Shown here piece after piece: positions 1,761 through 5,876 of a DNA stretch of 12,713 nt (position 1 is the stretch's first letter; each line of letters starts with the position of its first letter). A model generated the notes under the pieces. It had not been told where the DNA came from. It ran no database searches and was given only the letters and a program-made list of their open reading frames with translations. Location: IMG/VR virus record IMGVR_UViG_2695420532_000004; one strand, 5' to 3'. Position numbers and translations under genes: made by a program. This DNA is from a virus (taxonomy: Duplodnaviria; Heunggongvirae; Uroviricota; Caudoviricetes).

Positions 1761-1835
1761 TAATAAATTCAATCAAAGTAAATAATCATATTTTATAATA
1801 ACCTCCTGATGATACCTGTTCATTGGGAGGTTATT

Positions 1836-2453
1836 ATGGATAAAAATGTAGAGCATGTATTAGTTGATGCAATTGAAAATAAGCAATCTTTAACAGTCGT
1901 TTACTTAGGAGGGAGCCAGCCCGGAACATTAAGGAATATTTCTCCGATTAGTATAAATGGGGATAAGTTGCGGGCAAGATGCCATAGTTCTGGAGCAGTA
2001 AAGGTTTTCAATCTTGGGAAAATACAGTTACCCAGTAACTCCTGCGCGGTATCTATGCACTATGGAGATTTAGAAGTTAAAGCTTATGAGACGATGCAGA
2101 GCGTAAATGACAACTTTCATGCCCTTTATCCTGAAGGACGATGGGGTGTTGATTTTAATGAGCATCGCTTTGCTTTATTTGATTTTTTTAAAAACGGGAA
2201 ACGAAAAAAAACGGCATTTATGGCAATTGAGTTCAGGGAAAGAGATGAAGAGAAAATAATAACAGGTGTAACAATTGATATTGGTATATCTGGAACAGTG
2301 ATTTCTGAGAAATCCCGAATCCCAAAAAGACGACCATGGGTAGTGGTTGGTCCCGAACACGGAGAATACAGTACTTATTCAACTTTGGACAAGGCTGCTA
2401 CAGCGTTTTTTGAGAGGCTTTCGTTGATAGCATCCGGCCTGGAAGATAATTGA
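1836..2453 (+). CDS. hypothetical moron protein, 205 aa; N-terminal region loosely resembles a WYL/SH3-like ligand-binding fold
   Basis: Strong RBS GGGAGG at 1825-1830, 5 nt before ATG 1836; the ORF-track start at 1809 has no RBS. The gene is visibly AT-rich compared with its neighbours (rough by-eye estimate, mid-30s % GC versus about 50%). It occupies the Q-to-lysis slot where lambdoid phages carry cargo genes. No HExxH or other obvious catalytic motif was seen. Confidence 0.7.
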   Translation: MDKNVEHVLVDAIENKQSLTVVYLGGSQPGTLRNISPISINGDKLRARCHSSGAVKVFNLGKIQLPSNSCAVSMHYGDLEVKAYETMQSVNDNFHALYPEGRWGVDFNEHRFALFDFFKNGKRKKTAFMAIEFRERDEEKIITGVTIDIGISGTVISEKSRIPKRRPWVVVGPEHGEYSTYSTLDKAATAFFERLSLIASGLEDN

Positions 2454-2582
2454 TTTTATGTTTGGTATTCAGAGTTCGCCGTGCTTAAGAAAGTCAAGAT
2501 TCTAAAAATACTGAATGAGCTACTTGTGTTATAACAAAAATGCTATTAGTGTGTTAAGAGTGGTTACTTCGCCACACAACTT

Positions 2583-2607
2583 AAACCCGCCACTGAGCGG
2601 GTTTTTT
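2583..2607 (+). terminator. rho-independent terminator (candidate tR'-like)
   Basis: Stem AAACCCGC (2583-2590), loop CACTGA, stem GCGGGTTT (2597-2604), followed by a T-run to 2607. It lies about 130 nt downstream of the moron stop. Confidence 0.6.
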
Positions 2608-2705
2608 GTACCTGTAAACTTGGTGCAGTACAGTAAACACGCTGGTGGTCGTGAATACTGACTTTTTATCTTGCTGGCTTTTTAGACAAGAGTTATTGGT
2701 ATGTC

Positions 2706-2933
2706 ATGTTAACCAGAAGGGAAAAAGACATGCTAAAACAGCAAGATATGACAGAAACCGCCGCCGCAGTCCTTCATTTCTTACCTGCTGACAAGTGGGT
2801 AACGCCACGCATGATGACGAGAACTACCGGAGTAAGCGAAGCCCGGTGCCAGTTAATACTGACTCAGTTAGTTCTGGCGGGGCTGGCGAAGGATAACGGC
2901 GGGTACGGGAATAAATTCAGACGCTGCCAGTAA
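2706..2933 (+). CDS. small winged-helix regulator, FaeA/PapI-like
   Basis: 75-codon ORF (alternative starts ATG 2730 with AGGGA upstream, or ATG 2748). The pattern VLHFLPADKWVTPRMMTRTTGVSEARCQLILTQLVLAGLA matches the layout of PapI/FaeA-family wHTH proteins as recalled. It sits directly upstream of a DNA methyltransferase. Confidence 0.5.
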   Translation: MLTRREKDMLKQQDMTETAAAVLHFLPADKWVTPRMMTRTTGVSEARCQLILTQLVLAGLAKDNGGYGNKFRRCQ

Positions 2934-3083
2934 TGGCGGTTTCCTGCTGTGAAAATGGGCGGCTGGTGGGTGTTGGTAGCACCTGCCAGCCATTCGCTCA
3001 TGCTTACTGGTCACAAGCGAACCACGGCCCACTGCTTTAGCGCAAAAGCAGAGTGAGCCTACCAGAGTTACGCTTACTGATCC

Positions 3084-4136
3084 ATGAAAAATACTGTAAA
3101 AATAAACAGTGTTGATTTAATCAACGCTGATTGCCTGCATTTTATTCAGTCCCTGCCTGATGATTCCATTGACCTGATTGTTACCGATCCGCCGTACTTC
3201 AAGGTGAAACCCAACGGTTGGGACAATCAGTGGAAAGGGGACGAAGATTACCTTAAGTGGCTGGACCACTGTCTGGCCCAGTTCTGGCGGGTGTTAAAAC
3301 CTGCCGGAAGCCTTTATCTGTTCTGTGGGCATCGCCTGGCATCTGATATTGAGATCATGATGCGTGAACGTTTCAACGTGCTTAACCATATCATCTGGGC
3401 GAAGCCGTCCGGACGTTGGAATGGGTGTAATAAAGAAAGTCTGCGCGCATATTTTCCTGCCACAGAGCGCGTTCTGTTTGCTGAACATTACCAGGGGCCA
3501 TATCGCGGCAAAAGTGACGGCTATGCAGCAAAAGAAAGGGAACTCAAACAGCACATAATGGCACCGCTGATATCGTATTTCAGGGATGCTCGTGCCGAAC
3601 TGGGTATAACGGCAAAACAAATTGCCGAAGCCACAGGTAAGAAAAATATGGTTTCCCACTGGTTTGGTGCCAGTCAGTGGCAGTTGCCGAATGAGGCTGA
3701 CTATCGGAAGTTACAGGCACTGTTTTCCCGTATAGCGGCAGAGAAGTTTCAGGAACAACAACTGGAACAACCACACCACCAGCTGGTGGCATCTTATGAT
3801 TCACTGAATCGCAAATATTCTGAATTGCTGGATGAGTTTAAATCTCTCCGGCGCTATTTCTCCGTATCAGTCTCCGTGCCTTATACCGATGTCTGGACGC
3901 ATAAACCCGTTCAGTTCTACCCGGGTAAACATCCGTGCGAGAAACCGGCGGATATGCTCCGGCAAATAATCAATGCCAGTAGTCGCCCTGGTGATCTGGT
4001 TGCTGATTTCTTTATGGGATCCGGTTCCACAATAAAAGCAGCAATGGCGCTGGGGCGTCGGGCGTTAGGTGTTGAACTTGAGTCAGAGCGGTTTAATCAG
4101 ACGGTGAAAGAGGTAAGTGAACTGGTGGGGAAATAA
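3084..4136 (+). CDS. DNA methyltransferase, beta-class amino-MTase (probably N6-adenine), orphan
   Basis: Motif IV DLIVTDPPYF lies near the N-terminus and motif I (AdoMet-binding FFMGSGST...ALGRRALGVE) near the C-terminus; this IV-before-I order defines the beta class. A roughly 100-aa insert between them is a candidate target-recognition region. No restriction endonuclease gene is adjacent. Confidence 0.9.
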   Translation: MKNTVKINSVDLINADCLHFIQSLPDDSIDLIVTDPPYFKVKPNGWDNQWKGDEDYLKWLDHCLAQFWRVLKPAGSLYLFCGHRLASDIEIMMRERFNVLNHIIWAKPSGRWNGCNKESLRAYFPATERVLFAEHYQGPYRGKSDGYAAKERELKQHIMAPLISYFRDARAELGITAKQIAEATGKKNMVSHWFGASQWQLPNEADYRKLQALFSRIAAEKFQEQQLEQPHHQLVASYDSLNRKYSELLDEFKSLRRYFSVSVSVPYTDVWTHKPVQFYPGKHPCEKPADMLRQIINASSRPGDLVADFFMGSGSTIKAAMALGRRALGVELESERFNQTVKEVSELVGK

Positions 4137-4143
4137 TTCTGGT

Positions 4144-4169
4144 GGCCACGTTGCGTGGCCTTTTTATTT
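4144..4169 (+). terminator. rho-independent terminator between the MTase and the holin
   Basis: GGCCACG (4144-4150), loop TTG, CGTGGCC (4154-4160), followed by TTTTTATTT (4161-4169). Confidence 0.55.
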
Positions 4170-4212
4170 CCAACACAGCACCCGCAAATATCGCGAGGTG
4201 AGAGATGACGAA

Positions 4213-4548
4213 ATGCCTCATAACCCAAATACCTGGCCGGACTGGCTGGAGTTGTTTCAGAGCTGGTGGCGTGGAGACACGCCGCTGGGTGCAGTGATTA
4301 TGTCGATCGTTATGGCTGGTTTGCGCATCGCCTATTTTGGCGGTGGTGGTGGCTGGAAGCGAAAAACGCTCGAGATTTTGCTCTGTGGCGCTCTGACGCT
4401 GACCTTTGCATCCGCTCTTGAGTATGTCGGATGGCCTAAATCACTTTCTGTTGCCATTGGTGGCGGCGTGGGGCTGATCGGTGTCGATGCTATTCGTGGG
4501 GCTGCAATGCGAGTAATCGGTAACAAGTTTGGTGGCTCTAAGGAGTAA
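4213..4548 (+). CDS. holin (lambda S-like family)
   Basis: About 111 aa with hydrophobic transmembrane segments and a glycine-rich, basic C-terminal tail, placed immediately upstream of the endolysin. Start chosen at ATG 4213, downstream of the terminator hairpin, rather than the ORF-track start at 4117 which overlaps the MTase end. Confidence 0.8.
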   Translation: MPHNPNTWPDWLELFQSWWRGDTPLGAVIMSIVMAGLRIAYFGGGGGWKRKTLEILLCGALTLTFASALEYVGWPKSLSVAIGGGVGLIGVDAIRGAAMRVIGNKFGGSKE

Positions 4549-4551
4549 TTT

Positions 4552-5028
4552 ATGCAGGTACTAAATTCCCAGCGTAAAGCTTTCCTCGATATGTTGGCGT
4601 GGTCAGAAGGAACGGATAACGGGCGACAGCCAACCCGCAATCACGGCTACGACGTTATTGTAGGTGGTGAGTTATTCACGGATTACTCCGATCATCCTCG
4701 CAAACTTGTCACGCTAAACCCCAAACTCAAATCAACAGCCGCCGGACGTTACCAGCTTCTTTCACGCTGGTGGGATGCTTACCGTAAACAGCTTGGCCTG
4801 AAAGATTTTTCTCCAGAAAGCCAGGACGCTGTAGCTCTGCAGCAGATTAAAGAGCGTGGCGCTTTACCGATGATTGATCGCGGTGATATTCGTCAGGCTA
4901 TCGACCGTTGCAGCAATATCTGGGCTTCACTACCGGGCGCTGGTTATGGTCAGTTCGAGCATAAAGTTGACAGCCTGATTGCAAAATTCAAAGAAGCAGG
5001 CGGAACGGTCAGAGAGATTGAGGTATGA
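4552..5028 (+). CDS. R: endolysin, lambda R-type lytic transglycosylase
   Basis: The 158-aa translation ([26 protein letters not shown]...) is nearly co-linear with lambda R as recalled, including the catalytic-Glu context WSEGTD. RBS AAGGAG lies 6 nt upstream. Confidence 0.95.
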
Positions 5029-5492
5029 GCAGAGTAACCGCGATTATCTCCGCTCTGGTTATTTGTATCATCGCCTGCCTGTCATGGGCTGTTAATCATT
5101 ACCGTGATAACGCCATCGCCTACAAAGAACAGCGTGATAAAAAAGTCAGTGAGCTGAAGCAGGCGACCGCCACCATCGCTGACATGCAGCAGCGTCAGCG
5201 TGATGTTGCTGCGATCGATGCAAAATACACGAAGGAGTTAGCCGATGCGAAAACTGAAAATGAAACTCTGCGCGCTGATGTTGCCGCTGGTCGTAAGCGC
5301 CTGCGGGTCAATGCCAGTTGCTCCGCAGCCGTGCGTGAAGCCACCGGACCCACCAGCATGGATAATGCAACCAGCCCCCGACTGGCAGACACCGCTGAAC
5401 GGGATTATTTCACCCTCAGAGAACGGTTGATGACGATGCAGAAGCAACTGGAAGGGGCGCAGGAATATATCCGCACCCAGCGCATTAAGTAG
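5025..5492 (+). CDS. Rz: i-spanin Rz
   Basis: 155 aa with an N-terminal transmembrane segment and coiled-coil-like body, very similar to lambda Rz as recalled; its start overlaps the R stop (ATGA). Confidence 0.9.
5245..5430 (+). CDS. Rz1: o-spanin Rz1, lipoprotein embedded in Rz in the +1 frame
   Basis: 61-aa ORF wholly inside Rz with RBS GAAGGAG; lipobox LVVSAC and a proline-rich mature region ([24 protein letters not shown]) closely resembling lambda Rz1. Confidence 0.85.
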
Positions 5493-5876
5493 ATGGAGAA
5501 AAAACACGAATCTGTGGTTTTTACTGAGCGCGGTGTACACGGTGGAACATATGGCGGGAAGTTTGTTGCTTATGATTATGCAGCATGGCTAAACCCCGGA
5601 TTTAAATATGCAGCCTATAAAGTCCTGGATGACTACTTCACCGGAGAACTTCAGCATCGCAACAGCTTAAGTGCGCAGCTCAATATGAAGTGTCATGAGT
5701 TTGATCAGAAAAAAGATATGGCGAGCTTCTGTGGACAAGGGCTGGCGGCATGGCGCTATACGAAGCCAGTGTTGGTCGCTGAGATTAACTCCCTGGCTAA
5801 CCAGCTGCAGATAACGATCCCCGGGCTGTCCGGTATTTGCCGGTATGAAATTACCGGAAGGCGCGGTCGTTACTGA
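5493..5876 (+). CDS. KilA-N-like domain protein, apparently only the C-terminal half of the domain
   Basis: 127-aa ORF with GGTYGGKFVAYDYAAWLNPGFKYAAYKVLDDYF, resembling the conserved core of KilA-N/APSES domains. There is no clear RBS, and it starts on the codon immediately after the Rz amber stop, in the same frame. Confidence 0.45.
   Translation: MEKKHESVVFTERGVHGGTYGGKFVAYDYAAWLNPGFKYAAYKVLDDYFTGELQHRNSLSAQLNMKCHEFDQKKDMASFCGQGLAAWRYTKPVLVAEINSLANQLQITIPGLSGICRYEITGRRGRY

Follow-up and report, generated by a model that had tools for sequence, protein, structure and literature searches.

The window analysed here is a stretch of 12,713 nucleotides (nt) from a virus of the class Caudoviricetes (IMG/VR record IMGVR_UViG_2695420532_000004), and its subject is a cargo gene that lies between the antiterminator gene Q and the late genes. 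The open reading frame (ORF) at 1836-2453 on the + strand, which exists as originally predicted, encodes a 23-kDa soluble two-domain protein of 205 amino acids (aa). It is a WYL protein without a helix-turn-helix (HTH) and with a novel C-terminal domain, and this assignment is solid. To our knowledge, almost every WYL domain described so far forms the sensor half of a transcription factor which, on binding single-stranded DNA (ssDNA), turns on DNA-damage responses or anti-phage systems. The family described here keeps the sensor pocket and discards the DNA-binding output as well as the usual dimerisation domain. The reading that we favour, to which we give about an even chance, is that the protein would be a stand-alone ssDNA-binding sensor, expressed in the lysogen from its own promoter and acting by exclusion or defence. 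Defence, exclusion or counter-defence alike would be a second use of ssDNA sensing in phage-host conflict.

The WYL barrel and the family-specific C-terminal domain

The protein is divided as follows.

1836-2039, + strand: codons 1-68, N-terminal helix and five-stranded WYL (Sm/SH3-like) barrel, with the motif Y23-x-GGSQPG-xx-R33 ... RARC49 ... K56-x-F58 ... K62-I
2040-2087, + strand: codons 69-84, poorly conserved interdomain linker, with a predicted local distance difference test score (pLDDT) <50 at residues 70-78 and variable alignment columns
2088-2453, + strand: codons 85-205 and the stop codon, family-specific alpha/beta domain (helix, three strands, variable insert at ~134-167, two strands, helix)

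Residues ~3-65 are a true WYL/Sm-like barrel. A loose WYL/SH3-like resemblance had been proposed for residues ~20-70, and profile searches together with a structure model support it, with the barrel at ~3-65. The single protein scores 16.5 bits against Pfam PF13280 (E 0.0085), which is under the cut-off of 21.8, and phmmer with the single protein found nothing among PDB sequences. At the level of the family, 46 of 132 members match PF13280 at E<=0.01 (best 4.8e-8), and the family profile reaches the chains of DriD, BrxR and CapW among PDB sequences at E 1e-4. Family positions 6-73 are aligned by hhalign with residues 136-208 of a bona fide CapW from E. coli (94.1%, E 1.2e-7). The AlphaFold model, based on a deep alignment, has a mean pLDDT of 85.7 with both domains above 90, and the predicted fold is an alpha-helix followed by a curved antiparallel beta-barrel, as in WYL domains. 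Solved WYL domains have a five-stranded barrel. A search of the BFVD viral folds gave nothing at E<=0.001.

In the hidden Markov model (HMM) alignment, FRYEGGSTPGRTREVTP of DriD is paired with VVYLGGSQPGTLRNISP, and therefore Y23, S27 and R33 correspond to Tyr168, Ser172 and Arg178 of DriD, which hydrogen-bond the ssDNA backbone (PMC9186387). CapW residues R194, F196 and R200 are placed by hhalign onto K56, F58 and K62. Ligand contacts in DriD further include Arg204 and Trp206. CapW senses ssDNA via its WYL domain, and its R200A variant shows no response to prophage induction (PMC11662680). In the family, Y23, S27, R33, K56, F58 and K62 are 92-100% conserved (K62 as Lys or Arg). The WYL pocket would bind single-stranded nucleic acid, most likely short ssDNA, since the residues corresponding to the ssDNA contacts of DriD and CapW are the most conserved positions of the family.

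The C-terminal domain has no match in Pfam, NCBIfam, PADLOC or PDB sequences (none at E<=10 in PDB), in agreement with the earlier statement that the C-terminal 130 aa are without recognisable motif. A frataxin/CyaY-like alpha-beta sandwich is a weak match to the domain, with neither sequence similarity nor the acidic iron-binding ridge, and the likeness is maybe one of topology only. The insert at ~134-167 is of low confidence in the AlphaFold model. The conserved residues of the domain (W103, F118, K119, N120, G121, K125, R166, P167, W168, Y181, A187 and F191) are described as basic, aromatic, Gly and Pro, with no Asp, Glu, His or Ser among them, a conservation pattern that appears to suit a binding surface, not an enzyme. 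The HExxH motif is likewise not present in the 205-aa protein, as had been noted. The basic and aromatic residues probably complete the binding site or mediate oligomerisation, analogous to the WCX domain of other WYL proteins.

With its WYL helix beginning at residue 3, the protein has no HTH, and no HTH family was matched in it or in its 132 relatives. The C-terminal domain does not align with WCX when compared with CapW by hhalign, and its predicted topology is not the ferredoxin-like one of WCX; Pfam holds no WCX model able to detect even CapW's own WCX, and WCX was judged by hhalign and topology. The wHTH-WYL-WCX regulators (DriD, CapW, BrxR and PafBC) have a winged HTH, a WCX and an adjacent regulated operon, whereas the cargo family is without all three, has its W-Y-L triad deleted and is a stand-alone gene of phages and mobile elements. 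WYL1, the accessory protein of Cas13d, combines RHH with WYL and works with Cas13d, whereas the cargo family has neither RHH nor a partner gene. It is very improbable that the protein is a conventional WYL transcription factor of the CapW/BrxR/DriD kind that controls neighbour genes: its WYL domain is closest to those regulators and RefSeq gives it a WYL name, but it has no HTH, its C-terminal domain shares neither topology nor sequence with WCX, and there is no conserved regulated operon. This explanation is effectively excluded.

A word-indexed protein search gave just nine clusters and was superseded by an exhaustive HMMER search, in which a six-sequence profile collected 951 clusters (50% identity) at E<=0.001. 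At E<=1e-30 there are 186 clusters, nearly all of 187-210 aa and with end-to-end matches. In an alignment of 132 sequences, G26 and R33 are invariant, and positions conserved at >=90% are Y23, G25, S27, G30, P37, A47, C49, K56, F58 and K62 in the N-terminal domain and K119, G121, P167, A187 and F191 in the C-terminal domain. The gene itself is found in 51 of 5,426 complete E. coli genomes, and the HTH-less WYL family in ~1.4% of them. In many Proteobacteria, temperate phages and other mobile elements each have it as a lone gene, and at least one cyanophage also encodes a member. From these counts the family is neither rare nor an orphan.

The protein was originally said to match nothing that could be named with confidence. 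It is true that no paper in the literature searched names it; however, it belongs to a family of this size, and RefSeq calls some copies 'WYL domain-containing protein', so that the WYL call itself is not new, the RefSeq label being older. NCBIfam gave no meaningful match for the 205-aa protein. A WYL mention in a paper on Gifsy-1 is unrelated to the cargo protein, and in a paper on P2 hotspots WYL appears in the reference list only.

The slot between Q and the putative late promoter

The features on which the position of the gene depends are listed below.

1374-1760, + strand: Q antiterminator gene, 82/DLP12 type (Pfam PF06530, E 5e-48)
1537-2550, + strand: AT-rich mosaic module, made up of Q's C-terminal half (1537-1760), an intergenic hairpin, the cargo gene and, lastly, that upstream half of pR' which is specific to Q
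2524-2552, + strand: putative Q-dependent late promoter pR' (-35 TTGTGT at 2524-2529 and -10 TAGTGT at 2547-2552, separated by 17 nt that include an A-tract)
2553-2582, + strand: region transcribed first in the late RNA, GTTAAGAGTGGTTACTTCGCCACACAAC; folding gives a small hairpin at 2560-2575
2583-2607, + strand: intrinsic terminator (8-bp stem 2583-2590/2597-2604, U-run U6 at 2602-2607; dG -20.3 kcal/mol, z -3.48)

Judged from the comparison with related phages, the cargo gene is an accessory gene in a variable slot between Q and the putative pR', upstream of the late operon. The same place after Q holds unrelated cargo in mEp460 (a reverse-strand ORF of 308 aa plus a forward ORF of 56 aa), in DLP12 of K-12 and Lambda_4C10 (the nmpC porin), and in SfIV, PhiR40_1 and Stx2a_1447 (other ORFs). 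In the comparison phages, Q is followed by the cargo, then by a conserved segment that runs from GTTAAGAGTGGTTACTTCGCCACACA to a terminator, and then by the late genes. Apart from the 56-aa forward ORF of mEp460, the cargo of these phages is on the reverse strand, and a terminator-like stem with a T-run stands 3' of Q in mEp460, 4C10 and PhiR40_1. No terminator was found 3' of Q in the window. Like the nmpC-type cargos of 82/DLP12-type phages, the cargo of the window occupies the slot from Q to the late leader and terminator, is AT-rich, and is variable between otherwise similar phages. Unlike the reverse-strand cargos, it is co-directional with Q, has no upstream terminator, and has instead a hairpin that masks its ribosome-binding site (RBS). 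The locus is an example of a place, upstream of pR', where phages of the 82/DLP12 type carry cargo.

Directly 5' of the conserved segment, every phage compared has a TAnnnT hexamer, a -35-like hexamer 16-17 nt upstream of it, and an A-tract in the spacer. The equivalent promoters are TTTACG-16-TATGCT in DLP12, TTTACA-16-TATGCT in PhiR40_1 and TTGTGT-17-TAATCT in the 72% paralogue, and the same layout and offset are found in mEp460 and SfIV. In DLP12 the equivalent of pR' sits between nmpC and essD, and the lysis operon of DLP12 (the essD operon) has been reported to be controlled by Q (PMC7918800). The region 2553-2582 is 91-95% identical in mEp460, SfIV, SfII, Stx2a phages and DLP12. We infer that 2524-2552 is pR', with transcription starting at ~2559, and that 2583-2607 is tR'. 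The terminator segment is present in ~900 of the 5,426 complete E. coli genomes, mostly without the cargo gene, and since it is kept irrespective of the cargo it is not the private terminator of this gene. The intrinsic terminator that had been noted after the gene is thus real (z -3.5), but it is the shared tR', starting 130 nt past the stop codon of the cargo gene. Any transcription of the cargo gene would stop there as well.

A strict scan for promoters and terminators gave no enrichment over shuffles and missed the real terminator at 2583-2607. The hexamer TATAAT at 1794 was rejected as pR', since the conserved leader and terminator have their own -35 and -10 at 2524-2552 and a mosaic break lies at 2550/2551. 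The Stx2a phage was set aside as a classical Q-pR'-tR' reference, because it also has reverse-strand cargo upstream of the conserved segment. The stx genes occupy the slot after tR'. The description of the place as the classic moron slot is accordingly right as to variable post-Q cargo in related phages, but the slot lies before pR' and is not the post-tR' slot of stx. As is usual for morons, some phages have the gene and others do not, at a junction of genes that are direct neighbours in relatives, and its base composition is deviant; as for a promoter and terminator of its own, a -10-like hexamer occurs in all alleles with a poor -35, and the sole terminator is the shared tR'.

The unit of promoter, leader and terminator is common to DLP12, mEp460, SfIV, SfII, PhiR40_1, 4C10 and Stx2a phages, with the part comprising the -35 and spacer varying with the Q allele; the DLP12 copy is at ~3690-3790 of the K-12 locus (L074). 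A terminated late leader would be just ~50 nt long. Literature searches gave nothing on the conserved late leader sequence or on the RefSeq accession of the cargo protein. Around the cargo gene no Rfam model scored over threshold, the weak matches to STnc130, RsaJ and miRNA being all far under their gathering scores, and a tRNA search found none. The match to STnc130, a Salmonella sRNA candidate, is on the minus strand at 2575-2711, with 30 bits (gathering score 55) and E 0.05. As the match overlaps tR' on the opposite strand, the Salmonella candidate may have come from the corresponding region of a prophage.

The cargo ORF has a G+C content (GC) of 0.395, and of 0.32 at third codon positions (GC3), against 0.511 for the window, which is ~2.5 standard deviations under the mean of 618-nt windows. 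Its left neighbour Q has a GC of 0.424, and 0.402 in its C-terminal part, so that the cargo ORF is not distinct from Q. The claim that the gene is compositionally unlike its flanks therefore holds against the window as a whole but not against Q, which is AT-rich as well; the module at 1537-2550 (GC 0.378 against 0.511) spans part of it. The tract of low GC is thus wider than the gene, beginning within Q and stopping shortly ahead of the terminator. In blastn comparison with phage mEp460, homology extends over 775-1536 and 2551-5000 and is interrupted between; therefore, the exchanged unit is 1537-2550, which takes in the gene, Q's C-terminal half before it and ~100 nt beyond it. The break at 2550/2551 coincides with the -10 hexamer of the putative pR'. 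The stretch between the -35 and the -10 presumably holds the cognate binding site of Q. The specificity half of Q and this presumed promoter-proximal recognition DNA would then stand at the two ends of the module, with the interior DNA travelling along.

Among 75 E. coli genomes that match a probe from the C-terminal part of Q and the intergenic region, 74 have the WYL gene 3' of Q, and the 75th is a partial match of 63 nt. The 74 full matches comprise 52 at >=99% identity and ~22 at ~80%, and the linkage is seen in both paralogous versions. That the WYL gene is always inherited with this Q allele is explained by its position between Q and the inferred late promoter, and such trapping between the Q half and the promoter means that the linkage requires no functional coupling to Q. 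This bears on the possibility that the protein regulates the phage's own development, as an ssDNA or damage sensor that is coupled to this Q allele and tunes Q antitermination, late transcription or lysis timing. Both the linkage to one Q allele family (74 of 74 full-match genomes) and the physical position of the gene between Q and pR' would fit such a role. However, position between the Q specificity half and the cognate promoter-proximal site explains the linkage more simply, the distant members of the family are never beside Q and have no conserved neighbour, and related Q proteins function in many phages where the cargo gene is missing. We consider this role improbable.

The same trapping could suggest a decaying, functionless hitch-hiker held between Q and pR', and in one copy (L038) an IS1 element is found in the upstream hairpin. 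Against its 72% paralogue, the gene has a dS of 0.83, a dN of 0.19 and a dN/dS of 0.23, and the reading frame is unbroken in almost all of ~50 loci. With this constraint maintained over such divergence, and with 951 clusters that share motifs in both domains, a dead gene is barely conceivable and is effectively excluded. By these substitution rates, the cargo ORF is a real gene under purifying selection.

Directly upstream of Q, a DUF968/HNH-nuclease-like protein (phrog_96) is encoded at 376-1371, in a segment that is present in 42 of 50 IMG/VR loci (L015-L064).

The hairpin over the start codon

Three features precede the coding sequence.

1792-1840, + strand: 21-bp RNA hairpin over the Shine-Dalgarno sequence (SD) and AUG (arms 1792-1812/1820-1840, loop 1813-1819; dG -27.3 kcal/mol, z -4.73)
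1794-1799, + strand: candidate -10, TATAAT, for a promoter belonging to the gene itself; the majority allele has TATTAT and the paralogue TACAGT (relaxed scan and allele comparison)
1826-1830, + strand: SD GGAGG, 5 nt upstream of the ATG at 1836, read directly from the sequence

The ATG at 1809 is in frame and would lengthen the protein by nine residues, but it was rejected as the start since the paralogue of 72% identity has it in another frame; 1836 is therefore the real start. The strong RBS of the original prediction is present as GGAGG, but the 21-bp hairpin encloses both it and the ATG. None of 200 shuffles folds equally well, and four G.U pairs restrict the structure to RNA of the + strand. 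The inner stem is retained in the paralogue, where four of the five stem substitutions preserve pairing, and one allele swaps a G.U pair for G-C.

In the window allele, opening the stretch from SD to AUG would take 14-22 kcal/mol on RNA that reads through from Q, and 2.8-6.2 kcal/mol on RNA that starts at 1804-1808. The candidate promoter has a weak -35 (ATCAAA at 1772-1777), a 16-nt spacer and a predicted start at ~1806, inside the 5' arm of the hairpin. The change from TATAAT to TATTAT keeps the hexamer and loses one stem pair, and changes in the inner stem are mostly pair-preserving. On transcripts reading through from Q, the hairpin would mask the SD and AUG and the gene would be silent. 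Ribosomes could translate a transcript that begins at the -10-like hexamer of the 5' arm, and tR' would terminate it. The hairpin could in this way limit protein synthesis to RNA made from the promoter of the gene itself, and in the lysogen the protein would come mainly from this weak promoter. Processing of the long stem by RNase III could be an alternative route to opening the hairpin.

In the IMG/VR copy with IS1 (L038, ~5968), the end of the element lies in the hairpin loop, in place of the 5' arm and candidate promoter.

Genomic contexts and proposed function

Several longer relatives carry additional domains. P0127, P0142 and P0145 have an extra N-terminal transmembrane helix and a coiled coil, P0092 has zinc ribbons and transmembrane helices added at its C-terminus, and the member on pENTAS02 of Enterobacter soli has an N-terminal BRCT domain (PF00533, E 2e-8). 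P0067 and gp2 of phage PY3 have an extension of ~150 aa with no Pfam match. In this subfamily (PY3 gp2 at 2006-3115 of L073) the extension is a conserved C-terminal domain (...FRDA-x-DIK...MGWD-x-DK...), and the subfamily is probably phrog_31886. No enzymatic effector domain was found among the fusions of the longer relatives, and no conserved neighbour gene across 13 distant loci.

In Pseudoalteromonas phage PY3 the family member lies between the integrase and a LexA-type repressor, and in the phage-plasmid pENTAS02 it adjoins an integrase and an HTH regulator. One member is 3' of an HTH gene in an element with a DUF5906 gene, and others are beside Rha or terminase genes. A member in Leucothrix comes directly after a pair of GmrSD and RiboL-PSP-HEPN genes. 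It is at such positions that temperate elements typically have their conflict genes and the genes expressed in the lysogen.

Two of these contexts may be described further. The genes upstream of the Leucothrix member encode GmrSD_N (DUF262) and RiboL-PSP-HEPN (L008, 3640-5365), a defence-island setting. Homologous Rha-family (Phage_pRha) genes lie directly 3' of the member in two otherwise unrelated phage contigs (L003, 8858-9667; L067, 6860-7687).

A possible mechanism can be described as follows. The prophage-borne protein would sense or bind ssDNA that comes from incoming or replicating foreign DNA, or from DNA damage. It would act via sequestration or via ligand-dependent protein contacts, not via control of transcription, and the lysogen would benefit. 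Action by binding itself is argued for since there is no output or catalytic domain. The role on the side of the lysogen is favoured because of the integrase and repressor contexts, the defence-island neighbour, and the masking of the start on lytic read-through transcripts.

The main rival is an anti-defence decoy: an output-less WYL module that, at induction or during lytic growth, soaks up the ssDNA alarm of CapW/BrxR or poisons these regulators, so that CBASS, BREX and similar systems stay repressed while the phage replicates. The residues for ssDNA contact are conserved although there is no HTH or enzyme. The gene also has the same direction as Q and follows it closely on the early rightward transcript, no terminator lying between, whereas the relatives with reverse-strand cargo have one. 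A selective incentive exists as well, in that CapW is triggered when a lambda prophage is induced, and CapW-dependent CBASS cuts the lambda yield ~100-fold (PMC11662680). However, it is precisely on the read-through transcript that the SD and AUG are masked, and relatives have integrase and repressor genes or a bacterial defence island around them rather than an early anti-defence region. As the C-terminal domain is not alignable with WCX, there is no support for heterodimers with host regulators, and the titration of abundant ssDNA would require very high protein levels. Overall, the masking and the genomic contexts agree less with the decoy than with the lysogen-side role, and we consider the decoy unlikely, if a possibility to be kept in mind. 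A bolder extension, which we hold to be somewhat less probable again, is that the whole family consists of output-less WYL 'signal sponges' with which temperate phages and mobile elements would bind the short ssDNA alarm of CapW/BrxR and blunt CBASS, BREX or CRISPR priming during induction. If true, these would be the first counter-measure against the regulators of defence systems rather than against the systems themselves.

Several points weigh against the favoured role as a lysogen-expressed ssDNA-binding sensor. The equivalent of DriD Arg176 is T31, which is not conserved, and the W-Y-L triad is missing, with a 4-residue deletion and K44-L45 in the CapW alignment. Other known ligands of WYL domains are single-stranded RNA and c-di-GMP, and from the loss of the triad and from T31 it follows that the ligand specificity could differ. 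Degenerate triads also occur in accepted WYL members, DriD having NYL (PMC9186387). There is no effector domain to explain how binding stops a phage. As regards expression, the strict scan called no promoter at 1794-1799, where the -35 is very poor, and the opening of SD to AUG on read-through RNA would take only 10.5 kcal/mol in the majority allele and 8.4 in the paralogue, whose outer stems are weaker. Opening of the hairpin, with RNase III as one possible agent, would make the location just downstream of Q on the early rightward transcript equally compatible with lytic expression. No described defence system was matched in PADLOC-DB v2, which gave only sub-threshold WYL 'associated signalling' models (E 0.0015 and 0.0085), and the literature searched has no mention of the protein, of PHROGs 8498/31886, or of an HTH-less WYL protein in such a setting.

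Further genes of the window lie downstream of tR'. The first is an ORF of 75 aa at 2706-2933 (phrog_331, with weak MarR-/Ren-like similarity), which is also found ahead of the methylase in mEp460, PhiR40_1 and Stx2a_1447. An N6/N4 DNA methyltransferase is encoded in the late operon at 3084-4136 (PADLOC MTase_II, E 1e-152), with a weak internal HTH_3 match and no adjacent restriction gene, and its 3' end is overlapped by 20 nt by a GTG-start ORF for a lambda-S-type holin at 4117-4548. Rz is at 5025-5492 with an embedded Rz1-like candidate ORF at 5245-5430, and a KilA-N/ORF11CD3 protein of 127 aa is encoded at 5493-5876, between the lysis cassette and the terminase genes.

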